Shown here piece after piece: positions 1 through 61,057 of a DNA stretch of 64,000 nucleotides (the first letter of the stretch is position 1; every line of letters begins with the position of its first letter). The notes below the pieces were generated by a model. That model worked only from the letters and a program-made list of their open reading frames with translations. It ran no database searches and was not told the origin of the DNA. Both the position numbers and the translations under genes were made by a program. Source of the DNA: Escherichia phage Killian; sequence record OQ446694.1; one strand, 5' to 3'.

Positions 1-230
1 TCATGATTAAACCAATTATAATCGTACGCCAAATCCATTAGATTATAATATGTAAAAGGCACCGGATTAACATCATTAGTCACAAGCATATAATTAGTAA
101 CTGCTATAATTTCATTGTTTTTAACGAATACAAACCGTGATTGATGTGAATGACCCGGACCCGCGTTTTCACGATTAATGATATAACACTGGGCACCTTT
201 ATATTTGTATGTATCTTTACACTTGTGCAT
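1..230 (-). CDS. hypothetical early protein, C-terminus beyond window edge (T4 61.x-like position)
   Basis: minus-strand ATG at 228-230; frame stays open to the window start. Confidence 0.3.
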   Translation of the reverse strand, partial: MHKCKDTYKYKGAQCYIINRENAGPGHSHQSRFVFVKNNEIIAVTNYMLVTNDVNPVPFTYYNLMDLAYDYNWFNH

Positions 231-241
231 TTGATAGAGCA

Positions 242-535
242 TTATTCACCTACCACTTCAGCGATGATATTTTTATTATTAAAGTTTTTATCGCAATACA
301 GAACATAATTATACTGCATTACACCACCAGACTTAAGTTGTTTTTGCACCTCAGCTTTCATTTCAGGACGATCACGCTCAACGATATTCATAATATCTGC
401 TTCAATTTGAGTTTCAACCTCAGTCTGGTCTGCAGTCATAGACCACTCACACAAATCTTTATCATAACCTGCCATAGCAGGCTGAGCAGCACAAGAAGAT
501 AAAGCAAAAATTGCAGCAAAGATAAATTTTTTCAT
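242..535 (-). CDS. small secreted/lipoprotein-like protein (T4 61.x position)
   Basis: 97 aa ORF; hydrophobic N-terminal signal with LSSC lipobox-like motif. Confidence 0.5.
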   Translation of the reverse strand: MKKFIFAAIFALSSCAAQPAMAGYDKDLCEWSMTADQTEVETQIEADIMNIVERDRPEMKAEVQKQLKSGGVMQYNYVLYCDKNFNNKNIIAEVVGE

Positions 536-593
536 GATAATCTCCTCAGTAGTTTATGTTTATAGTATCTCAATTTCCAATAAAAGTAAACAA

Positions 594-893
594 TTATTTT
601 AAAACTTCTGCATAATCACATGCTACAAACTGTTTCTCTAACTTGACGATTTTACGAAAGTATCTTTTGCATTGACGAATCTGTCGCTTCGTAGGGCGCA
701 CAGCAAACTTAATAAATTCCACTCGACCAAATGGAGGACTTTCTTCTGCTGGAATATCTAATACTAATTCCCACGTATCTGCAATAAGTGCTTTGAATTG
801 AGTATTTTTCCTAACATTATACGGAGTAGGTTTAAATAAAACGATATGCATATTATCCTCGGCAATCCACTTCGCATACTTTCTTGTCATCAA
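594..893 (-). CDS. hypothetical basic protein (T4 61.4-like position, next to dmd)
   Basis: 99 aa ORF; Lys/Arg-rich C-terminal part. Confidence 0.45.
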   Translation of the reverse strand: MMTRKYAKWIAEDNMHIVLFKPTPYNVRKNTQFKALIADTWELVLDIPAEESPPFGRVEFIKFAVRPTKRQIRQCKRYFRKIVKLEKQFVACDYAEVLK

Positions 894-1035
894 TGAAAGC
901 TTTAACTAGTGCTTTATTAACTTCAGCATATTGATTAGTAGCCCAGTGAACGTCATCTTTCATCATTGTGATTTCTTTAGTAAACATGCTTTCATTCTTA
1001 AACCACCCCATAAAAACTACCTTTACCAATTCCAT
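853..1035 (-). CDS. dmd: Dmd antitoxin-like protein (inhibitor of RnlA/LsoA toxins)
   Basis: 60 aa, MELVKVVFMGWFKNE..., matches recalled T4 Dmd in length and sequence; sits immediately downstream of gene 41. Confidence 0.7.
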   Translation of the reverse strand: MELVKVVFMGWFKNESMFTKEITMMKDDVHWATNQYAEVNKALVKAFIDDKKVCEVDCRG

Positions 1036-1093
1036 AACAATCTCCTCATTTAACCAACAAGACTACTATACCATAGTCTTGTCAGCTTGTAAA

Positions 1094-4126: not shown

Positions 4127-4975
4127 TTAATCAACTGCTATTGGATGAATAGCATTAAACTTATGAAACGCTTCTGATTTTTCTTTGCGCGAAACACACA
4201 TGCGAAGAACCTTTAATGGCTCGTCTTCTTCACCTAATGATTTTCGTTTTTCAATATTAGAAGTTTTCCAACGAGCTTGCTCTGGAAACTCTCTATTGAT
4301 TTGCTCAAGAGCTCTATTATGTTTTGAATTACTACGAATTGAACTACATCCGCCTGGAGCTTGTGCTTTTCCAGATACAACCAGATATTTGAACAAGGCC
4401 AAATGCGGATAACCTTGATTAATTAAATTGAGAAATGCATACATATCTTCGCATAAATCAATTTTTCCATACCCAATTTGTTCTGTCGTAAGTTTTCCAA
4501 GGTCATACCATGTATTCGTGAATCCATATGAATTTTCACGATAATTACCCCAAGATGAAGTAATTTTAAAAATTGGTAAACGAGCATGACCATGATAATA
4601 CCCGCAATCCATGGCATCTTCAACGTATTGAATCAATTCATAGAACTGTTCACGAGTTAATTGATTAATTTTATCTACGCAGCGACGATCATCTTTCTTT
4701 CGCATTGAACTCATACGAATAGTAGTATCATCATCAATCATCCAGATTCGTTGGCCTGCATACATATCAGTAATTGCTTTACGAGTACCAGCAATTCCAT
4801 TAACATCATCAGGAATAGTTATAATTTTGGCTCTAGACCCGTAAGCGTCATAATAAGCTTTTTCTTCGTGTTCACGTACTACAATATGCGGTTCATAATC
4901 AGATGGAAACATATCAAGGGCAGAAACTGCCCCTACGCGTTGATAGCTTGGAATTACGAATTGAATCATTTCCAC
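4127..4975 (-). CDS. putative DNA glycosyltransferase with DxD motif (not T4 beta-gt; possibly T2/T6-type beta-glucosyl-HMC alpha-glucosyltransferase)
   Basis: 282 aa; IWMIDDD DxD motif; occupies the uvsX-42 slot where T4 has beta-gt. Confidence 0.5.
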   Translation of the reverse strand: MEMIQFVIPSYQRVGAVSALDMFPSDYEPHIVVREHEEKAYYDAYGSRAKIITIPDDVNGIAGTRKAITDMYAGQRIWMIDDDTTIRMSSMRKKDDRRCVDKINQLTREQFYELIQYVEDAMDCGYYHGHARLPIFKITSSWGNYRENSYGFTNTWYDLGKLTTEQIGYGKIDLCEDMYAFLNLINQGYPHLALFKYLVVSGKAQAPGGCSSIRSNSKHNRALEQINREFPEQARWKTSNIEKRKSLGEEDEPLKVLRMCVSRKEKSEAFHKFNAIHPIAVD

Positions 4976-15182: not shown

Positions 15183-16198
15183 TGTGTTGCCTCTACATAT
15201 AACTGATTTGCATATTGAATAAGTGCTTCGCGGTCAGAATCAGTGATGTCTGGAATTGCATTAATGTATTCTTCCATCAATGTCTGAAGAGATTGAACTT
15301 CAACTTCTTCACTATCATCTGACTCAACAGAGTTATCAATCTTTGACACAACTCGTAATGAATGCACAACTTTTTCTAGTTCAGATTCGAACTTCGTCAG
15401 ATTTTTGTCTACCTCAGTTACTATAACACGTACTGATAGATTTGTAAAATCTTTATAGTCAATTTTTCCCTTAAATGGATATTGAATTCGACGATGCCAG
15501 GTAGTGTTGTTTGGAATAAATTCCATTCGTTCTGTTTCTGTATCAAACATCCAGAACCCACGAGGGTCATTCTCGTCACCTGCAGTTAGTGTCCATGGTG
15601 TCCCAATATATCTGACGTTAGCAGCCTCAGAGATAGTATGGAAGTGACCAGACCACACTTCTTTATAAGTCTTAAGGAAATCAGGTTCAAGACCGTGAGA
15701 TTTCATTCCTTTATAAAAATAAAATCCATTCAGTTCCCAGTGACCAACACAAAAAGAAGCAGATGAAGTTTTGATGTGTTCAAGAATTTCACCAGTATTT
15801 TCTTCACACATCCAAGGAATTAAATCAATCAAACATCCGTCAAAATCTACTGTAGTAGGCTTATCATATACTTTAACATTAGGATATTTAGCCAAAAGCT
15901 CAGTAGAAGCATTTGGATGCATTACATTTTTGTAGTGGAGATCGTGATTTCCTACAATAGTATGTAATGTGATTCCAGCGTCATCAAGCATTTGAACTAT
16001 TTCACGGGCAAACTCCATAGTTTTATGCGTGATCGCTTTTCGTACATCAAAAATATCACCGTATTGAATCCATACAGTAATTCCATTTTTCTTAGAATAT
16101 TCTATCGCTTGCTTAATTCCGTCAAGTTGAATACCGCGAATCCATTCATCATCAGCTTTAACGCCTAAATGCCAATCACCCAAGTTTAGTATTTTCAT
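15179..16198 (-). CDS. 47: recombination nuclease subunit gp47 (Mre11/SbcD-like)
   Basis: 339 aa; phosphoesterase motifs DWHLG, GDIFD, GNHD. Confidence 0.95.
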   Translation of the reverse strand: MKILNLGDWHLGVKADDEWIRGIQLDGIKQAIEYSKKNGITVWIQYGDIFDVRKAITHKTMEFAREIVQMLDDAGITLHTIVGNHDLHYKNVMHPNASTELLAKYPNVKVYDKPTTVDFDGCLIDLIPWMCEENTGEILEHIKTSSASFCVGHWELNGFYFYKGMKSHGLEPDFLKTYKEVWSGHFHTISEAANVRYIGTPWTLTAGDENDPRGFWMFDTETERMEFIPNNTTWHRRIQYPFKGKIDYKDFTNLSVRVIVTEVDKNLTKFESELEKVVHSLRVVSKIDNSVESDDSEEVEVQSLQTLMEEYINAIPDITDSDREALIQYANQLYVEATQ

Positions 16199-16799
16199 GG
16201 TGTCTTTTCCATCCTAATTTAGCTGCTTTTGAAACTAGTTCTTTAATTTTTCCTTTTGTCCATTCAGGACCAGGAGGTTCATGACATAACATTTGCTTAA
16301 CTCCGTTATTATACCATTTTTTACCTTTATTATGTGATGAAGCTTTAAATTTATTTGACCTTCCTTTTACATAACCTTCTGGAATATACGGCAAAAAGGC
16401 AGATTTTCCTGTTAATGGGTCATGTGAATGTATATTTCCTTTACAATTATGAGAACCATATAATGGATGATTTTGTCCTTTAATATCTCTTCCAAATGAA
16501 CCTTTTGGAGCAGCATATGACATATTAAAGAATAATGGATTTTTAACCGCATCATGCAAACGTTGATAATATAGCTCGCATTTAATAGCTTCTTCGCGCG
16601 TATCAAATTCATCTAAAATGCATGAATCAAATAAATGTGGGTTATCTGAAAGTTCTTCATTATAAATTTTCTTATACTTTTTAGATAAAACTGATCCATG
16701 ATATCCGGCTAAATGCCTATCTAAAGATGTAGATCCAATATAAAAAGGAGGAAGTTTATCTCCACTATATATTGTTAAATAAGTTATATATTTTTTCAT
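16176..16799 (-). CDS. freestanding homing endonuclease, GIY-YIG-like with NUMOD-type repeats
   Basis: 207 aa; N-terminal IY...YIG motif; repeated NHPLYG-type motifs; inserted between 47 and a-gt, overlapping the 47 start. Confidence 0.55.
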   Translation of the reverse strand: MKKYITYLTIYSGDKLPPFYIGSTSLDRHLAGYHGSVLSKKYKKIYNEELSDNPHLFDSCILDEFDTREEAIKCELYYQRLHDAVKNPLFFNMSYAAPKGSFGRDIKGQNHPLYGSHNCKGNIHSHDPLTGKSAFLPYIPEGYVKGRSNKFKASSHNKGKKWYNNGVKQMLCHEPPGPEWTKGKIKELVSKAAKLGWKRHHENTKLG

Positions 16800-22690: not shown

Positions 22691-24504
22691 TGGTGTTTAA
22701 CCCTATGCATGATTTCTTTATTTTTGCCGAGATTAAATCCGCGTTCATTCGGATTTCCCAAATAACCACAAGTTCTTCTTATTGTGTTCATCTTTTTAGG
22801 ATCAGTTTCTCCACAAATAGAACAAACAAACCCGTTTTCAGTAGGAGTCATTTCATGGGTACTTCCGCATGTAAAACATTTATCTACTGGCATATTAACA
22901 CCAAAATAATCTAAATGTTGTGCAGCATAATCCCATACAGCCTCAAGACCTTTTAGGTTATTTTTCATATCAGGAAGTTCAACATAAGAAATGTGACCAC
23001 CTGTCGCAATGAAATGATATGGGGCTTCGCGAGAAATCTTTTCAAATGGAGTAATATTTTCTTCTACCGAAACGTGGAAACTGTTAGTGTACCAGCCTTT
23101 ATCGGTAACATCTTTTACACTTCCATATTTTTCGGTATCAAGTTTACAGAAGCGATAGCACAGGTTTTCAGCAGGTGTAGAATACAAACTAAAAGCAAAA
23201 CCGGTTCTTTCAGTCCACTGCTTAAGATGAGCATTCATTTTAGTTAAAATTTCTTGTCCAATATCACGACCGACAAGAATATTCAATTCGTGAATACCAA
23301 TGTATCCTAGGGACACTGAACTTCTACCGTTTTTAAATAACTCAATTATATCGTCATCAGGTTTAAGACGAACCCCGAATGCACCTTCTTGATAAAGAAT
23401 AGGAGCAACAGTCGCTTTAACTCCTTTTAAGGAACTAATTCTACACATCAAAGCTTCAAAACACAAATCCATTCGTTCATTGAACAATTCAGCAAATTTC
23501 TGTTCATTGAACTGTGTTCCAATATAAGAATCTAGTGCAATGCGAGGAAGATTCAGTGTTACAACACCAAGATTATTACGTCCATCAAGAATTTCATTAC
23601 CAGTCGAATCTTTCCATACACCCAAGAAACTACGACAACCCATTGGAGAAACAGGAATAGATGAACCGGTGATAGCTTTATTGTTCTTAGCTGAAATAAT
23701 ATCAGGATACATTCTTTTGCTTGCACACTCTAGAGCAAGCTGCTTAATATCATAGTTTGGATCGTCTTTATAAAGATTAACACCTTCTTCAACGAACATA
23801 ACAAGCTTAGGGAAAATAGGAGTTATCCCATCACGACCAAGACCTTTAATACGATTTTTCAGAATTGCTTTCTGAATCATTCGTTCAGTCCAGTCAGTTC
23901 CCGTACCAAATGTAATTGTTACAAAAGGCGTTTGTCCGTTTGAACTAAAGAGAGTATTTACTTCATATTCATAAGCTTGGAATGCATCGTATACGTCTTT
24001 TTCTGTTTTAGACTGGGCGTAATTCAACGCATCAGCGATTTGCCATTTTTCTGCGTCCTCAATATGTTTTGCGTAGGTGCGTTTAACATAAGGAGAAAGG
24101 ACTTTATCTACATTCGCAAAAGTCGTTCCGCCATATTGATGGGAAGCAACCTGCGCAGTAATTTGTGCCATAATTGCAGTAGCAACGCCGATTGATTTAG
24201 GAGTTTCAATCTGCGCATTACCGAGCTTAAATCCATTCTCAAGCATTCCTTTTAAATCGACTAAACAGCAATTAGTAAAAGGCAATGATATACTGTAATC
24301 TAAATCATGAAAATGAATTAATCCAACATTATGTGCATTTACAATATGACTTGGAAGAATACGACAAGCGATATGTTTAGAAACAATACCGGCCATTAAA
24401 TCTCTTTTTGTTGGAAAGACACGAGAATCTTTGTTGGCGTTTTCGGTATTTAATTCTTTATCTTTATTTGAAATAAAATTTAAAACATCTTTCTCTAAAG
24501 ACAT
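22687..24504 (-). CDS. nrdD: anaerobic ribonucleoside-triphosphate reductase NrdD
   Basis: 605 aa uninterrupted; C-terminal glycyl radical motif RRTCGYLG and Zn-ribbon cysteines. Confidence 0.95.
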   Translation of the reverse strand: MSLEKDVLNFISNKDKELNTENANKDSRVFPTKRDLMAGIVSKHIACRILPSHIVNAHNVGLIHFHDLDYSISLPFTNCCLVDLKGMLENGFKLGNAQIETPKSIGVATAIMAQITAQVASHQYGGTTFANVDKVLSPYVKRTYAKHIEDAEKWQIADALNYAQSKTEKDVYDAFQAYEYEVNTLFSSNGQTPFVTITFGTGTDWTERMIQKAILKNRIKGLGRDGITPIFPKLVMFVEEGVNLYKDDPNYDIKQLALECASKRMYPDIISAKNNKAITGSSIPVSPMGCRSFLGVWKDSTGNEILDGRNNLGVVTLNLPRIALDSYIGTQFNEQKFAELFNERMDLCFEALMCRISSLKGVKATVAPILYQEGAFGVRLKPDDDIIELFKNGRSSVSLGYIGIHELNILVGRDIGQEILTKMNAHLKQWTERTGFAFSLYSTPAENLCYRFCKLDTEKYGSVKDVTDKGWYTNSFHVSVEENITPFEKISREAPYHFIATGGHISYVELPDMKNNLKGLEAVWDYAAQHLDYFGVNMPVDKCFTCGSTHEMTPTENGFVCSICGETDPKKMNTIRRTCGYLGNPNERGFNLGKNKEIMHRVKHQ

Positions 24505-25316
24505 AATTCTAATTTATCCTTTTGAAATTCTTCGTCTAAATATGGGTTCCAACCCATTTTAAACCTTTTGATGAAATTATCAATTCTAAATTTCGGTAAG
24601 TTTAAATCCGCAAAAATAGATGATTTACTTTTAAAATCTGGACCTAAATAATCATATAAAATTTCTGCGTATTTTAACCATAATATACAAGTACCAGATT
24701 TAATTGCTCTCGGAGTTTTCCAAGGTTTTACACCATACATCGGATTTCCACTTCCTTTATGCCTGATAGAAGATGAAATTCCAATTTTAATTTTAGCTTC
24801 CTTTGTATGCGAAAATCCACGATGCGGATTTTCTTTCCAGTATTTTTTAGAAGCTTCTGATATTTTCTTTCTGGCTAAATTAGTATGATGCTTTCCATAA
24901 AATCCATGATTTTTGCCTTTATTACGATTTCTTTTAATCATGGTTATTGATTGCTTTTCTCTAGTTTCTTTAGAAGGAGAAATACCATATGTCGTAAATT
25001 TGCCATCAGCATATGCTAAATTAAAATACTCTTTATTCCATACATCTTTTTCTATATTCTTTTGAAATTCAGCTTCAATGCTAGTTATTTGTTCATCTCC
25101 GACTAATTGAAAATATAATATTTCAACTTTCGGCGTTTCTTTCAACAGGGCTTTTTGAAATTCGGAAGATGACGAAGACGAATAATAAAATTTACCATTT
25201 TTATCAATAATATTCGTTCCGTCAAAAGTGCAATTGGTTTTACTTCCAATATAATAATATGGTGGGGTTTTAGCATTAATTCTACTAATAAATGATAGTT
25301 TATATACTACATTCAT
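24495..25316 (-). CDS. freestanding homing endonuclease-like protein (GIY-YIG-like N-terminus, NUMOD-type repeats)
   Basis: 273 aa; YYIGS motif; repeated NHGFYG/NPMYG motifs; between nrdD and 49. Confidence 0.55.
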   Translation of the reverse strand: MNVVYKLSFISRINAKTPPYYYIGSKTNCTFDGTNIIDKNGKFYYSSSSSSEFQKALLKETPKVEILYFQLVGDEQITSIEAEFQKNIEKDVWNKEYFNLAYADGKFTTYGISPSKETREKQSITMIKRNRNKGKNHGFYGKHHTNLARKKISEASKKYWKENPHRGFSHTKEAKIKIGISSSIRHKGSGNPMYGVKPWKTPRAIKSGTCILWLKYAEILYDYLGPDFKSKSSIFADLNLPKFRIDNFIKRFKMGWNPYLDEEFQKDKLELCL

Positions 25317-26768: not shown

Positions 26769-27158
26769 TTAATTTCGCAATTTATTAAGTTCTTCATAAT
26801 CAATCCAGGATTCTAGTCCTGATGGCAAATCAGATTCAATTTCCCAAAGAAGTTCTTCAATTTTCTGAAGACGATCTAATTCTTCAGCAGGAATAGTAAC
26901 CATTGACGGAGTTCTTGATACGCTAATATCGTAAATCATATTTACCCCCAGTTTGACCATACAATCGCCATATTTCCATTTAGAAATAGACTTTTCACCA
27001 TTAGAATAATAAACTTCAAGTTTAGCACGATTATTTTTAATTTGAATAACCTTTGCTGTCATCAAAGTTCCATACCCATAATAAACTGCAACCTCATCAC
27101 CTACATATACCGCGCTTCCGCGGTAGTCATGGATATAATCAGTTCCTTCGAGCATCAT
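26769..27158 (-). CDS. hypothetical protein
   Basis: 129 aa ORF. Confidence 0.45.
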   Translation of the reverse strand: MMLEGTDYIHDYRGSAVYVGDEVAVYYGYGTLMTAKVIQIKNNRAKLEVYYSNGEKSISKWKYGDCMVKLGVNMIYDISVSRTPSMVTIPAEELDRLQKIEELLWEIESDLPSGLESWIDYEELNKLRN

Positions 27159-30006: not shown

Positions 30007-31032
30007 GTTCAGTGCATTTAGTGCATTGTTCAGTTTAGAACGTTGCTTTGTCAGATTTTGAACCCTTGACTGAGCTTGTTCTAACACCTTTTCAGCTTCT
30101 AGCACTTCATTGGTCGCTTTAACGAGTTCATCATCTACTGCCTTAAGAGACTTCTCAATCGCGTCAGCGTGCCATTTTTCTACAGGTTTAAAATTTGAAT
30201 TTTCAGTAGGAAGAAAACTCACTTTATTAAGTTTACATGCATCTATATTGCTTGAGCTATACATCCAAAATTTAGGATCGTTTGATGAGTAATTGGATAA
30301 ATTTAAATTTAAGTTATCTTGCACTTCCTGCTTTTTCTCTTGCGTGACTTCGTCCTTTCTCAAAAAATCGTATTTAAATGAAACGATCATATCAAGTTCA
30401 TACGTTGTTGTATGTTCCCAATTTCGCTCAAAACGAGGTAAAATCTTAGACTGAACAGCGGCAACAACATCCATATACTTAAATGCTTCTGTCAACTGTG
30501 ATTTAAGGCATTCGCAAATTGAAAGAGAATTTTTTGTATTAGGTTTAAAGCTAATTCGTGCAGTTCTATTATTTTCTTTTAATGGTCTTACTTCCATCTG
30601 AAGAGTATAACCATCAAATTTCAGGTTCTTTAAGTTAATGTCAGAACCTTTTAATCGACTAGCCGTCGACAAAATTTGCTTTAATTGTCTACGGAACAGA
30701 GCAATAAATCTCCATTCAATACGATAATGATTTGGATTGAAAAATCCAGATGATAAATCGACCTTACTTTGACCAACGCCTTGAACAAATAGAGGATTTT
30801 TATAATCAATAGTTTTACAGAAATCGGTGAGCTGCTCACGAGCCGTCATTTGTGTAATATACCCTGCTTTACTAAAATTACGCACCCATTCACTGCTATT
30901 CGTATACTTAAAGTGATGAATAACACGATTAACTTTATCAGGGTCTAAATTATTTTCACACAAAAATGTCATAACATCACGAGTATAACTGGCATTACGA
31001 ACCATATCTTCAATTTGAGAACGAGTTTTCAT
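30004..31032 (-). CDS. uncharacterised protein with C-terminal coiled coil (array member C)
   Basis: 342 aa. Confidence 0.5.
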   Translation of the reverse strand: MKTRSQIEDMVRNASYTRDVMTFLCENNLDPDKVNRVIHHFKYTNSSEWVRNFSKAGYITQMTAREQLTDFCKTIDYKNPLFVQGVGQSKVDLSSGFFNPNHYRIEWRFIALFRRQLKQILSTASRLKGSDINLKNLKFDGYTLQMEVRPLKENNRTARISFKPNTKNSLSICECLKSQLTEAFKYMDVVAAVQSKILPRFERNWEHTTTYELDMIVSFKYDFLRKDEVTQEKKQEVQDNLNLNLSNYSSNDPKFWMYSSSNIDACKLNKVSFLPTENSNFKPVEKWHADAIEKSLKAVDDELVKATNEVLEAEKVLEQAQSRVQNLTKQRSKLNNALNALN

Positions 31033-45317: not shown

Positions 45318-45620
45318 TTATTTACCTTTAATTACTTTAGCTGCTTCGATAGCCGCTTGCTGAAGGTCATCCATAGACATACCGAATTTAGAAGCAAAGT
45401 TATCAATTTTCTTTTCGACAGCATTCAAAGGCTTGGCCTGTTTACCTTCATTAGCGCCAGGAAGAGCGAGAATACGCTCTTTGTCAATATAAAGGCTTAC
45501 AAGTTTCTTACGGTCTTTATCGGACAAATCGTGAAATGAATGGGCCTTTTTATTTATAGCGGCTTCTAATTTACCTGCACTCACTCGCGCTTCAGTAATA
45601 AATTCTTGATATGTTTTCAT
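45318..45620 (-). CDS. ipII: internal protein (IPII-like) with capsid-targeting N-terminus
   Basis: 100 aa; MKTYQEFITEA N-terminus matching the IP capsid-targeting/prohead-protease cleavage consensus. Confidence 0.6.
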   Translation of the reverse strand: MKTYQEFITEARVSAGKLEAAINKKAHSFHDLSDKDRKKLVSLYIDKERILALPGANEGKQAKPLNAVEKKIDNFASKFGMSMDDLQQAAIEAAKVIKGK

Positions 45621-50243: not shown

Positions 50244-50807
50244 TTATTTATCTAGTTTAGTTATTATAGCTTCTGCGGCAGCTTTTAGCTTAGATGCAGT
50301 GTTAATACGATTTTTAATTTCAGTATACGCATCGCCAAGAACATCAAGGCTATCAGAATAAACACTTACACTATTGCGTTCGCTATTTGAAATAAAACCT
50401 TTAGTTTTACGATCAAAATCGGTGTACACGTCTTGAAGATCACGGGCAGCCTTCTTTGCATCATCCAATGCATCAAGAGCTTTATTCAAAGCATTAACAT
50501 ATTTTTTAGTGTCAAACATATTCTTAGAAATTTTAACAGGTGCACGTTCAGGAGTAGCTAAGGCAGATTTAGGAACCTGAGCGCCAGATGCCAATTTCTT
50601 AGAAATTTTGAAAAACGCTTTATTGAATTTATTTTCTTGACTCATCGTAAAAGAACTATTATCGATGTTATACATTTCAATAGCTTTAGCTTTCCACTTA
50701 AGAAAATCGCCACGGTCTTTTGGGTCTAATTGAAAGAATACTTTAGTAAGATCTGCTTCAGACGGTAATTTTGCTGCTTCGGTCAAAAATTCGGCATAGG
50801 TTTTCAT
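50244..50807 (-). CDS. internal protein-like (IPIII-like) with capsid-targeting N-terminus
   Basis: 187 aa; MKTYAEFLTEA N-terminus. Confidence 0.55.
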   Translation of the reverse strand: MKTYAEFLTEAAKLPSEADLTKVFFQLDPKDRGDFLKWKAKAIEMYNIDNSSFTMSQENKFNKAFFKISKKLASGAQVPKSALATPERAPVKISKNMFDTKKYVNALNKALDALDDAKKAARDLQDVYTDFDRKTKGFISNSERNSVSVYSDSLDVLGDAYTEIKNRINTASKLKAAAEAIITKLDK

Positions 50808-52532: not shown

Positions 52533-53165
52533 TTATTTATTACGTGAAAAAGATTGTTCTATCAATTCTGGACACTTTCGTTCTATCCATTTTCTAGCTT
52601 TTTGTGGGCTTATACCTATTATTTTAGCAGCTTTACTAACCCATCCAAATTTAGAATAATCGATTTTAACTAATTCTTCGTAAATTTCATCAGTTAAAAT
52701 CTTTTCATTAATATTTACCAGTAAATGATATAATTTATTATCATTAGCAATTTTAATGAATCTTTTATAGTTTCCGCCTTTACTTAAACCTAATGAAGTA
52801 ATTGCAGATGATATAGTAGCCGAATTTAATAGTGCGTTTAAAATTTCTTCATCACTAACATTATAACGCTTTTTATTATTTTTAATATTTTTACCAGCAA
52901 AAGTATCAGTTTGCGAATGGCAATTTGGACATAATAATCTTAAATTTGATTTAAGATGATTTTTGTTATTTCCATCAATATGGTCTAATTGCAGAACAAT
53001 ATGCTTATTTTGCCATTTTGAAATTTTACAAATTGCACACTCATATGGAAAAATATTTTCTTTTATTATTTTGTCTTTCAGCTTTCCTGTACTAAAATTT
53101 GGATGTTTTCCTTCAAAAATTTCAGCTAATTTAGTATCCATAATATAATTCCCAATTATTAACAA
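52533..53165 (-). CDS. HNH homing endonuclease
   Basis: 210 aa; CxxC...HIDGNNKNH...CPNCH HNH/Zn motif; abuts tRNA-Leu. Confidence 0.65.
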   Translation of the reverse strand: MLIIGNYIMDTKLAEIFEGKHPNFSTGKLKDKIIKENIFPYECAICKISKWQNKHIVLQLDHIDGNNKNHLKSNLRLLCPNCHSQTDTFAGKNIKNNKKRYNVSDEEILNALLNSATISSAITSLGLSKGGNYKRFIKIANDNKLYHLLVNINEKILTDEIYEELVKIDYSKFGWVSKAAKIIGISPQKARKWIERKCPELIEQSFSRNK

Positions 53166-54659: not shown

Positions 54660-54697
54660 GGGTAATAGTATCACTACCCCATCTAAAAGTAAACTTA
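54660..54697 (-). promoter_or_regulatory. T4-type early promoter (IP locus family)
   Basis: TTGATAGGGTAATAGTATCAC...GTAAAC cassette. Confidence 0.5.
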
Positions 54698-54928
54698 TTT
54701 TTTACGAAAAATTGATTTATTTTCTGCTGCCCATTTTTCAATAACTGCAACAGGACCAGTAACAACAATTTTATCACCGTAATCTTCTGCGGCGAGTTGA
54801 CCGAAATTATCTAATGCATCACGAAGAACTCCATGAGGCATTTCACCCATTTTATCTTTCTTGCCGGTGTAAATAAACTCAGCTTTTACATCAGAAGATT
54901 CAGCGATAAACTCTTTGAAAGTTTTCAT
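54695..54928 (-). CDS. internal protein-like (ipI-locus family) with capsid-targeting N-terminus
   Basis: MKTFKEFIAES start (second Met of track ORF 54695..54940). Confidence 0.55.
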   Translation of the reverse strand: MKTFKEFIAESSDVKAEFIYTGKKDKMGEMPHGVLRDALDNFGQLAAEDYGDKIVVTGPVAVIEKWAAENKSIFRKK

Positions 54929-55004: not shown

Positions 55005-55262
55005 TTATTTTAAATCTTCTAATCGTTTCTTCATCTTAGAACCATTCTTAGCGATTTCTCCTGCATCAGAGCATAATGCTAAAAGCGCTTTAACTTTAGT
55101 TTGGTCTCCTTTAAAAGATGAAGGATCGACTGCAGCAGCAAGTTCTTTAATACGAGAGAAAAGACGCTCGGCTTCAGCTAAAGCCATTCCAAGCTTTACT
55201 TCCATACCGTGGGAAGATTCAGTGATAGTAGTTTTTGTAGCAAACTCTTTGAAAGTTTTCAT
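55005..55262 (-). CDS. internal protein-like (ipI-locus family) with capsid-targeting N-terminus
   Basis: 85 aa; MKTFKEFATK N-terminus; own early promoter. Confidence 0.55.
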   Translation of the reverse strand: MKTFKEFATKTTITESSHGMEVKLGMALAEAERLFSRIKELAAAVDPSSFKGDQTKVKALLALCSDAGEIAKNGSKMKKRLEDLK

Positions 55263-58755: not shown

Positions 58756-59346
58756 ATGCTCTTTACATTTTTTGATCCGATTGAATATGCGGCCAAAACG
58801 GTGAATAAAAACGCGCCGACTATTCCTATGACAGATATTTTTAGAAACTATAAAGACTATTTCAAACGTGCTCTTGCGGGATACCGCTTACGTACTTATT
58901 ATATTAAAGGTTCACCGCGCCCGGAAGAATTAGCAAATGCTATATATGGAAATCCGCAGTTGTATTGGGTTTTATTGATGTGTAATGATAATTATGATCC
59001 GTATTATGGATGGATTACTTCGCAAGAAGCTGCTTATCAAGCATCTATACAAAAATACAAAAACGTAGGTGGAGACCAAATAGTATATCATGTGAATGAG
59101 AACGGTGAAAAATTTTATAATTTAATATCATACGATGATAATCCATATGTTTGGTATGACAAAGGCGATAAAGCTAGAAAATATCCTCAATATGAAGGAG
59201 CACTTGCTGCGGTCGATACGTATGAAGCTGCTGTTCTTGAAAATGAAAAACTTCGTCAAATAAAAATAATAGCAAAATCAGACATCAATTCATTTATGAA
59301 CGACCTTATACGTATAATGGAGAAATCTTATGGAAATGATAAGTAA
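58756..59346 (+). CDS. 53: gp53 baseplate wedge protein
   Basis: 196 aa; first plus-strand late gene; T4 length. Confidence 0.9.
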   Translation: MLFTFFDPIEYAAKTVNKNAPTIPMTDIFRNYKDYFKRALAGYRLRTYYIKGSPRPEELANAIYGNPQLYWVLLMCNDNYDPYYGWITSQEAAYQASIQKYKNVGGDQIVYHVNENGEKFYNLISYDDNPYVWYDKGDKARKYPQYEGALAAVDTYEAAVLENEKLRQIKIIAKSDINSFMNDLIRIMEKSYGNDK

Positions 59347-61057
59347 TAACCTTAATTGGTTTGTTGGTGTTGTTGAAGATAGAATGGACCCATTAAAATT
59401 AGGTCGTGTTCGTGTTCGTGTGGTTGGTCTGCATCCACCTCAAAGAGCACAAGGCGATGTAATGGGTATTCCAACTGATAAATTACCGTGGATGTCAGTT
59501 ATTCAACCTATAACTTCTGCAGCAATGTCTGGAATTGGAGGCTCCGTTACTGGTCCGGTAGAAGGAACTAGAGTCTATGGTCATTTTTTAGACAAATGGA
59601 AAACTAACGGAATTGTCCTTGGCACGTATGGTGGAATAGTTCGCGAAAAACCTAATAGACTTGAAGGATTTTCTGATCCGACTGGACAGTATCCTAGACG
59701 TCTAGGAAATGATACTAACGTATTAAACCAAGGCGGAGAAGTAGGATATGATTCGTCTTCTAATATTATCCAAGATAGCAATCTAGACACTGCGATAAAT
59801 CCTGATGATAGACCACTATCAGAGATTCCAACTGATGATAATCCAAATATGTCAATGGCTGAAATGCTTCGCCGCGATGAAGGATTAAGACTAAAAGTTT
59901 ATTGGGATACTGAAGGATATCCGACAATTGGTATTGGTCATCTTATCATGAAGCAGCCAGTTCGTGATATGACCCAAATTAATAAAGTTTTATCAAAACA
60001 AGTTGGTCGTGAAATTACCGGAAATCCAGGTTCTATTACAATGGAAGAAGCGGTAACTTTATTTGAACGTGATTTGGCTGATATGCAACGTGACATTAAA
60101 TCACATTCTAAAGTTGGCCCAGTTTGGCAAGCAGTTAATCGTTCTCGTCAAATGGCATTAGAAAATATGGCATTTCAGATGGGCGTTGGCGGTGTAGCTA
60201 AATTTAACACAATGTTAACTGCTATGTTAGCCGGAGATTGGGAAAAGGCATATAAAGCTGGTCGTGATTCATTGTGGTATCAACAAACAAAAGGCCGTGC
60301 ATCTCGTGTTACCATGATTATTCTTACAGGTAATTTGGAATCATACGGTATTGAAGTGAAAACACCGTCTAGGTCTTTGTCAGCAATGGCTGCTACTGTA
60401 GCAAAGTCTTCTGATCCAGCTGATCCTCCTATTCCGAATGATTCGAGAATTTTATTTAAAGAACCTGTTTCTTCATATAAAGGTGAATATCCGTATGTTC
60501 ACACGATGGAAACTGAAAGCGGTCATATTCAGGAATTTGATGATACCCCTGGGCAAGAACGATACAGATTAATTCATCCGACTGGAACATATGAGGAAGT
60601 ATCACCCTCAGGAAGAAGAACAAGAAAAACTGTTGATAATTTGTATGATATAACAAATGCTGATGGTAATTTTTTGGTAGCCGGTGATAAAAAGACTAAC
60701 GTCGGTGGGTCAGAAATTTATTACAACATGGATAATCGTCTCCACCAAATAGATGGAAGCAATACAATATTTGTACGTGGCGATGAAACTAAGACGGTTG
60801 AAGGTAATGGAACTATCTTAGTCAAAGGTAATGTTACTATTGTAGTTGAAGGTAATGCTGACATTACAGTTAAAGGAGATGCTACCACTTTAGTTGAAGG
60901 AAACCAGACTAATACAGTAAATGGAAATCTTTCTTGGAAAGTTGCTGGGACAGTTGATTGGGACGTTGGTGGTGATTGGACGGAAAAAATGGCATCTATG
61001 AGCTCTATTTCATCTGGTCAATACACAATTGATGGATCGAGGATTGACATTGGCTAA
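59330..61057 (+). CDS. 5: gp5 baseplate hub with lysozyme domain (cell-puncturing device)
   Basis: 575 aa; central lysozyme domain similar to gene e product; C-terminal VxGxxxxx beta-helix repeats. Confidence 0.95.
   Translation: MEMISNNLNWFVGVVEDRMDPLKLGRVRVRVVGLHPPQRAQGDVMGIPTDKLPWMSVIQPITSAAMSGIGGSVTGPVEGTRVYGHFLDKWKTNGIVLGTYGGIVREKPNRLEGFSDPTGQYPRRLGNDTNVLNQGGEVGYDSSSNIIQDSNLDTAINPDDRPLSEIPTDDNPNMSMAEMLRRDEGLRLKVYWDTEGYPTIGIGHLIMKQPVRDMTQINKVLSKQVGREITGNPGSITMEEAVTLFERDLADMQRDIKSHSKVGPVWQAVNRSRQMALENMAFQMGVGGVAKFNTMLTAMLAGDWEKAYKAGRDSLWYQQTKGRASRVTMIILTGNLESYGIEVKTPSRSLSAMAATVAKSSDPADPPIPNDSRILFKEPVSSYKGEYPYVHTMETESGHIQEFDDTPGQERYRLIHPTGTYEEVSPSGRRTRKTVDNLYDITNADGNFLVAGDKKTNVGGSEIYYNMDNRLHQIDGSNTIFVRGDETKTVEGNGTILVKGNVTIVVEGNADITVKGDATTLVEGNQTNTVNGNLSWKVAGTVDWDVGGDWTEKMASMSSISSGQYTIDGSRIDIG

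Follow-up and report, generated by a model that had tools for sequence, protein, structure and literature searches.

The left end of a 64-kb stretch of Escherichia phage Killian (record OQ446694.1; the whole stretch of 64,000 nucleotides (nt) that was analysed is called the window, and coordinates refer to it) very probably carries the orthologue of the phage T4 early block dmd-tifA-sp-adfA, situated between the helicase gene 41 and the primase gene 61, with functions inferred from the T4 genes. The block was read in bases 1-1100 on the minus strand, where all four open reading frames (ORFs) are present; the ORF at the edge was read by hand and translated. It is made up of three published toxin-antitoxin (TA) inhibitors, Dmd, TifA and AdfA, together with the superinfection-exclusion protein Spackle. 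The block is already known, every part being orthologous to a T4 gene with a published function, and Srikant et al. have called the region a possible 'anti-TA island' of T4 (PMC9391042). Gene identity, gene order, frames, starts, retention of key residues and the pattern of substitution were read from the DNA, and activities were assigned by orthology.

A sequence-only reading had recognised Dmd in a 60-amino-acid (aa) ORF, placed the downstream ORFs at the T4 61.4, 61.3 and 61.2 positions and stated that this neighbourhood has been reported to encode further inhibitors of TA defence. Our comparison bore out all three claims. Alignment to the T4 61.4, 61.3 and 61.2 proteins revealed strong similarity (83/85, 94/97 and 73/76 residues identical; 96-98% protein identity to T4 across the block), the order is that of T4, and the further inhibitors correspond to TifA, which acts against ToxN, and AdfA, which acts against DarT1 (PMC9391042). 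The gene-by-gene mapping, absent from that reading, is as follows: 61.5 is Dmd (targets RnlA and LsoA), 61.4 is TifA (ToxN), 61.3 is Spackle (gp5 lysozyme) and 61.2 is AdfA (DarT1).

Identity and layout of the block

When bases 1-1100 were searched by megablast, 502 of 50,697 phage records matched, all of them from T4-like phages that infect Escherichia, Shigella, Yersinia and related bacteria. The closest was Escherichia phage UGKSEcP1, with 99.8% DNA identity and the same genes annotated. The order uvsX-40-41-dmd-61.4-sp-61.2-61.1-61 is annotated over the corresponding stretch in UGKSEcP1 and T4 (NC_000866), and the order within the window, uvsX-40-41-dmd-61.4-sp-61.2, is identical to that of T4. 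The entire window aligns collinearly with 19.5-83 kb of T4 (84-98% identity), thirteen segments being replaced or inserted, and we therefore assign it to Tequatrovirus. Coordinates of the features are given in Table 1.

PHROG matches were consistent with the Pfam assignments for the block. None of the four proteins had a match among the NCBIfam profiles, this library being without these phage families. Codon differences from T4 (synonymous:non-synonymous) were 2:2 for dmd, 11:2 for tifA, 8:3 for sp and 13:3 for adfA. The mostly synonymous divergence of tifA, sp and adfA is a signature that points to coding sequence under purifying selection; the ratio for dmd, with only four changed codons, is little informative. 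The exact Dmd, TifA and Spackle sequences are already in public collections.

Table 1. Features of the block, its spacers and related genes in the window
Feature	Coordinates	Strand	Basis
adfA (T4 gene 61.2), 5' part	1..242	-	PF23813, T4 identity
sp (T4 gene 61.3), Spackle, 97-aa precursor: 22-aa signal peptide and 75-aa periplasmic helical protein	242..535	-	PF25676, T4 identity
tifA-sp spacer: T4-early-promoter-like site and sp ribosome-binding site	536..593	-	read from sequence
tifA (T4 gene 61.4), 85 aa, basic RNA-binding protein, co-operonic with dmd	594..851	-	DUF7279, T4 identity
dmd (T4 gene 61.5), 60 aa	853..1035	-	Pfam PF17587, T4 identity, gene position
Gene 41-dmd spacer: early-promoter-like site, overlapping hairpin, dmd ribosome-binding site	1036..1093	-	promoter scan, folding
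Gene 5 (baseplate hub / tail lysozyme), Spackle target	59330..61057	+	567/575 identical to T4 gp5
ORF, 393 aa	2868-4049	-	mechanical ORF list
ORF, 120 aa	2531-2893	-	mechanical ORF list
ORF, 475 aa	1094-2521	-	mechanical ORF list
ORF, 60 aa	853-1035	-	mechanical ORF list (dmd)
ORF, 99 aa, TTG start	594-893	-	mechanical ORF list (tifA over-extended)
ORF, 97 aa	242-535	-	mechanical ORF list (sp)
Open frame from 230/242 running off the left edge		-	read by hand (adfA)

dmd

The 60-aa product of the gene next to helicase gene 41 matched the Dmd family PF17587 (9.2e-45, 151.3 bits against a cut-off of 27), with residues 1-60 aligned on profile positions 1-60. It also matched phrog_2102 (1.6e-38) and the structure entry PDB 5hy3_B ('Antitoxin Dmd', 4e-36). 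Comparison with T4 Dmd revealed 58/60 identical residues, the two changes in the window copy (Q30H and T34N) falling at sites that are variable in RB69 too. As in T4, dmd encodes 60 aa, is the first gene downstream of gene 41, is preceded by a promoter-like site and a ribosome-binding site (GAGGAG 5' of the ATG) and heads a two-gene early unit with 61.4. The identical Dmd sequence is public in phages UGKSEcP1 and EC121. As a phage-encoded antitoxin, Dmd inhibits two HEPN RNase toxins, RnlA and LsoA, directly, and T4 late mRNAs are degraded without it (PMC8266594). The LsoA-Dmd complex has been solved (PDB 5HY3). By orthology, the window Dmd is predicted to inhibit RnlA and LsoA.

tifA

The second gene of the unit begins at an ATG at position 851, which lies 1 nt past the dmd stop and is separated by four nucleotides from an upstream GAGGA. 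Its product matched DUF7279, the gp61.4/TifA family (2.3e-20, 72.7 bits against a cut-off of 24.5), and phrog_2375 (3.7e-38), and shares a 90% cluster with T4 AAD42511. T4 61.4 is TifA, ToxN inhibitory factor A, directed against the type III toxin ToxN (Srikant 2022; Guegler 2023; PMC9391042, PMC10853763). The functional TifA that was tested is 85 aa long and neutralises ToxN, and removal of its ATG abolishes the activity (PMC9391042). A basic C-terminal helix with a Pro-Thr cap binds RNA, and ToxN is trapped in an inactive ribonucleoprotein complex; activity is lost in the P53A/T54A and K55A/R56A/R59A mutants (PMC10853763).

The window TifA retains P53, T54, K55, R56 and R59, that is, the Pro-Thr cap and the basic helix, and shares with T4 its length of 85 aa, the translational coupling to dmd and F41. 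It differs by T77A and I83V, both in the C-terminal tail, a part wholly absent from RB69 TifA. F41 is the weak T4 allele and the commonest among the sampled relatives, while F41S and F41H inhibit ToxN much more strongly than F41 does (PMC10853763). The allele predicts that ToxN neutralisation by the window TifA would be T4-like and weaker. T4 evades the type III system toxIN via tandem amplification of the dmd-tifA unit (PMC9391042); the window tifA is present as a single copy, without amplification.

sp and its target

The product of the third gene matched PF25676 (T4_Spackle; 2.8e-45, 153.3 bits against a cut-off of 27; residues 1-96 on profile positions 1-96), phrog_1586 (8.4e-47) and the structures PDB 6x6o (1.1e-60) and 7cn6 (1e-46). 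The three differences from T4 Spackle (PDB 6X6O, 6XC0, 7CN6, 7CN7) are T8A and A13S in the signal peptide and K53E in the mature part, where E is the commoner allele among relatives. The N-terminus reads MKKFIFAAIFALSSCAAQPAMA followed by GYDKDLC, giving a 22-residue signal and a predicted mature start at G23. As in T4, the precursor has 97 aa, the AMA↓G cleavage site is intact, and C29 and C81 are kept together with the contact residues S32, M33, T34, A35, Q37 and N76 (roles in PMC7677548, PMC7650644).

N-terminal sequencing of T4 Spackle placed cleavage after residue 22, and a soluble 75-aa species was released from the periplasm (PMC7650644). The mature form has 75 residues, is helical and periplasmic, and contains a C29-C81 disulfide; it inhibits the gp5 tail lysozyme, which accounts for superinfection exclusion and for resistance to lysis from without (PMC7677548, PMC7650644). 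Crystal structures in which Spackle is complexed with gp5 lysozyme, and inhibition of the enzyme, have been published (PMC7677548). The gp5 encoded in the window keeps R181, R182, R187, K189, R312, K321, G322 and R326, which are Spackle contacts or suppressor sites (PMC7677548, PMC7650644), and in this gp5 the basic horseshoe patch of the lysozyme domain is unchanged relative to T4. By analogy with T4, the window Spackle is taken as a superinfection-exclusion factor and not as an anti-defence candidate.

adfA

The window holds the first 80 of about 208 adfA codons when counted from ATG 242 (76 from ATG 230), or approximately 38% of the gene; the rest lies past the left edge. The 76-aa fragment matched PF23813, AdfA ('Anti-DarT factor A'; 1.8e-41, 142.3 bits against a cut-off of 27), on profile positions 5-83 of 211. 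Of the three positions that differ from T4 gp61.2 in these N-terminal 76 residues, two (T4 L62 and D66) have P and Y in the window, in agreement with RB69 and UGKSEcP1. Two start codons are available. Translation from the ATG at 242, the start annotated in T4, gives MLYQMHK; AGGTGA lies upstream of this ATG, which shares bases with the stop codon of sp (TAATG) as it does in T4. The ATG at 230 gives MHK, where the RB69 protein begins. The 61.2 protein is AdfA, an inhibitor of DarT1 (LeRoux 2022, as cited in PMC9391042 and PMC11257639). RB69 AdfA binds DarT1 only with H, and not R, at residue 164, and T4 naturally has H (PMC11257639). The full AdfA of UGKSEcP1 has H at this position, as T4 does, and RB69 has R.

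Spacers and expression signals

The T4 dmd-61.4 locus is transcribed from an early promoter upstream of dmd (PMC9391042). In the gene 41-dmd spacer of the window, which differs from that of T4 at one base, a consensus scan identified a promoter-like site consisting of TTTACA (1093-1088), 17 nt and TATAGT (1070-1065), with 10/12 consensus matches and an extended TG. The TTTACA is preceded by G, giving the T4-early motif GTTTAC. This site fits the published early promoter and would drive dmd-tifA. The second site, in the tifA-sp spacer, consists of GTTTAC (591-586), a 17-nt spacer after TTTACT, and TACTAT (567-562). T4 shares these hexamers even though a 2-nt indel follows just downstream, and from the GTTTAC motif and this conservation we infer a putative promoter upstream of sp. 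Its position is consistent with the 'promoter downstream of tifA' of Srikant et al. (PMC9391042).

Folding revealed a 15-bp hairpin at 1052-1087 on the minus strand (-18.9 kcal/mol, z = -3.7) that overlaps the promoter-like site upstream of dmd. The hairpin is conserved in T4, with one base change making a G-C pair G-U, and its formation would require read-through transcription from gene 41. A terminator scan of bases 1-1300 found no intrinsic terminator, and by its definition the hairpin, which has no T-run, is not one. An Rfam scan of the same bases (E <= 1) found no known RNA element in either spacer.

Comparison with RB69

The genes dmd, 61.4, sp and 61.2 stand in identical relative order in RB69. 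In RB69, in contrast to the window, two extra ORFs separate gene 41 from dmd, and an insertion of imm.1 and imm separates 61.4 from sp. RB69 TifA is 70 aa long with H41, and the R164 of its AdfA is the non-neutralising allele. The layout of the window is of the T4 type and not of the RB69 type.

Alternative readings and proposed working

Two of the ORFs had been described differently in the sequence-only reading. It had given 61.4 as a basic protein of 99 aa at 594-893; the basic character holds, but the length and start do not. The longer version would begin at TTG 893 and overlap the 3' end of dmd by 41 nt, and in its favour the frame is open up to 893 and a few automatic gene calls in public data yield 61.4 versions of 93-98 aa. 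However, TTG 893 is without a Shine-Dalgarno sequence whereas ATG 851 has one, the PHROG family-profile match to the 99-aa ORF begins at residue 15, and the alignment with RB69 TifA begins at the ATG. Annotation in T4 and UGKSEcP1 is also of 85 aa, as is the published protein that needs this ATG for activity (PMC9391042). We regard a TTG start as next to impossible and rejected the 99-aa ORF as a mechanical over-extension; the gene occupies 594-851, its start lying 42 nt downstream. The ORF at 242-535 had been called lipoprotein-like and put forward as an anti-defence candidate. The resemblance is there, in the lipobox-like LSSC at residues 12-15 (pattern [LVI][ASTVI][GAS]C), and sp is located between two anti-TA genes. 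Nevertheless, the intact AMA↓G site, the known lysozyme complex structures and enzyme inhibition of T4 Spackle (PMC7677548), and the RB69 arrangement, in which sp adjoins imm and imm.1, other superinfection-exclusion genes, all argue for Spackle. The T4 protein, 97% identical, loses its first 22 residues on cleavage and is a soluble periplasmic species (PMC7650644), and the LSSC is therefore most likely unused as a lipobox. A lipoprotein with an anti-defence role is thus highly improbable, and the ORF is better read as the inhibitor of gp5 lysozyme that serves superinfection exclusion.

With the four genes assigned in this way, the block would work as follows. An early promoter upstream of dmd would supply a dmd-tifA message right after infection. 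Dmd would bind RnlA or LsoA and block both toxins once the labile antitoxins RnlB and LsoB decay, and the basic C-terminal helix of TifA (P53, T54, K55, R56, R59) would bind RNA, with ToxN held as part of an inactive ribonucleoprotein complex. A single-copy F41 tifA would, like that of wild-type T4, give only partial protection against E. coli toxIN. Spackle would be exported, shed its 22-residue signal peptide and, in the periplasm, bind the gp5 lysozyme of superinfecting T-even phages at its basic patch, so that penetration of the cell wall would be blocked. AdfA would bind the DNA ADP-ribosyltransferase DarT1.

Several points weigh against this assignment of functions. All activities in this phage are carried over from T4 or RB69. 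Single-copy wild-type T4 tifA fails against plasmid-borne toxIN (PMC9391042), and the window phage shares the F41 allele of T4 tifA. The AdfA residue that decides DarT1 binding (RB69 position 164) lies outside the window. T4 ΔadfA has no DarTG1 phenotype, even when adfN (gene 30.3) is also absent; the natural target of AdfA is therefore uncertain, and the authors of that study propose that T4-type AdfA may target another DarT homologue (PMC11257639). The substitutions Q30H and T34N might affect the binding of RnlA or LsoA by Dmd, and the promoter-like site next to sp has 8/12 matches, under the threshold of the consensus scan. It may be that the genes are T4 orthologues but that the TifA and AdfA alleles act in natural hosts on toxins other than E. 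coli ToxN and DarT1, or not at all, and that the 'anti-TA island' is one in name only for laboratory systems. The AdfA result just described fits this view, as do the greater strength of the F41S and F41H variants, the specificity of TifA homologues for particular ToxN proteins (PMC10853763) and the restriction by toxIN of T4 with F41 TifA unless tifA is amplified about tenfold (PMC9391042). On the other hand, over-expression of T4 TifA gives full rescue from ToxN and four ToxN homologues are neutralised (PMC9391042, PMC10853763), ectopic T4 AdfA restores growth of RB69 on DarTG1 cells (PMC11257639), and the mostly synonymous divergence of tifA and adfA from T4 indicates selection for some function. 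We consider this alternative unlikely, though it deserves real weight, and prefer the T4-type functions. Somewhat less probable still is the tentative idea that T4-type AdfA and F41-type TifA suit toxins yet to be identified (the other DarT homologue, or a ToxN member of a natural host), and that their constant linkage with sp and, just outside the window, with gp61.1 may reflect a broader protection module for the 'first minutes of infection' with at least one further activity. The window held no pointer to such a module beyond the proposals already in the literature.

Annotation and host range

The region matters chiefly as a point of annotation, since the TifA and AdfA assignments are already published. 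The 61.4 and 61.2 orthologues are labelled 'hypothetical protein' in nearly all records, including that of the nearest relative UGKSEcP1. In Shigella phage KNP5 the TifA orthologue bears the name 'DNA polymerase', and two AdfA matches carry the label 'putative major capsid protein'. T4-phage protein fragments are also listed under Enterococcus faecalis accessions, probably as contamination. As regards host range, the alleles suggest resistance to RnlAB and LsoAB, the F41 TifA allele suggests T4-like sensitivity to strong toxIN expression, and Spackle and Imm suggest exclusion of superinfecting T-even phages.

Other features in and beside the window

The gene that follows adfA in T4 lies just past the left edge of the window. 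T4 gp61.1 (54 aa, 'hypothetical') and its UGKSEcP1 orthologue start with MKTF/YKEFIKE (L002 2967-3131 and L001 2450-2614, both on the minus strand). The same N-terminal pattern is the capsid-targeting sequence of the internal proteins IPI (MKTFKEF), IPII and IPIII (MKTYQEFIAE). The pattern suggests that gp61.1 may be a packaged or injected peptide encoded beside adfA; in the literature that we looked at, no link of gp61.1 to the capsid-targeting sequence was found. Within the window, four ORFs on the minus strand carry the internal-protein leader MKT[FY]xEF (54695-54928, 55005-55262, 50244-50807 and 45318-45620). In place of the T4 ipI locus, which encodes an anti-GmrSD internal protein, the window has two different ORFs with the leader (77 and 85 aa), and a leader-bearing ORF of 187 aa lies within the e.8-rnaC region.

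Other segments that depart from T4 were observed elsewhere on the minus strand. Between uvsX and gene 42, a 280-aa beta-glucosyl-HMC-alpha-glucosyltransferase (4127-4969; phrog_842, 1e-88) stands in place of T4 segA and the beta-glucosyltransferase gene, and DNA glucosylation is therefore expected to be of the T2/T6 type and not of the T4 type. In place of T4 gene 49.3 there is a 129-aa ORF (26769-27158) with a DUF7205 match at its N-terminus (1e-10) and, over its C-terminal 56 aa, a match to phrog_3402 (8e-39), which is labelled 'antitoxin from a toxin-antitoxin system'; a match to the T7 gp5.9 RecBCD inhibitor (0.0026) was sub-threshold, below the cut-off. From these matches, the ORF may be a further counter-defence candidate in the window. 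The set of homing endonucleases is unlike that of T4, with the segA, mobB, mobC, I-TevII, mobD and segC segments absent or replaced, and HNH or homing endonuclease ORFs were found after gene 47 (16176-16799), in the nrdD region (24495-25316) and in the tRNA region (52533-53141). The orthologue of T4 nrdC.5 is present at 30007-31032 on the minus strand, with 322/342 residues identical; nrdC.5 is an accessory gene reported to enable T4 to get past dsr1, a defence gene, in ECOR17 (PMC9391042).

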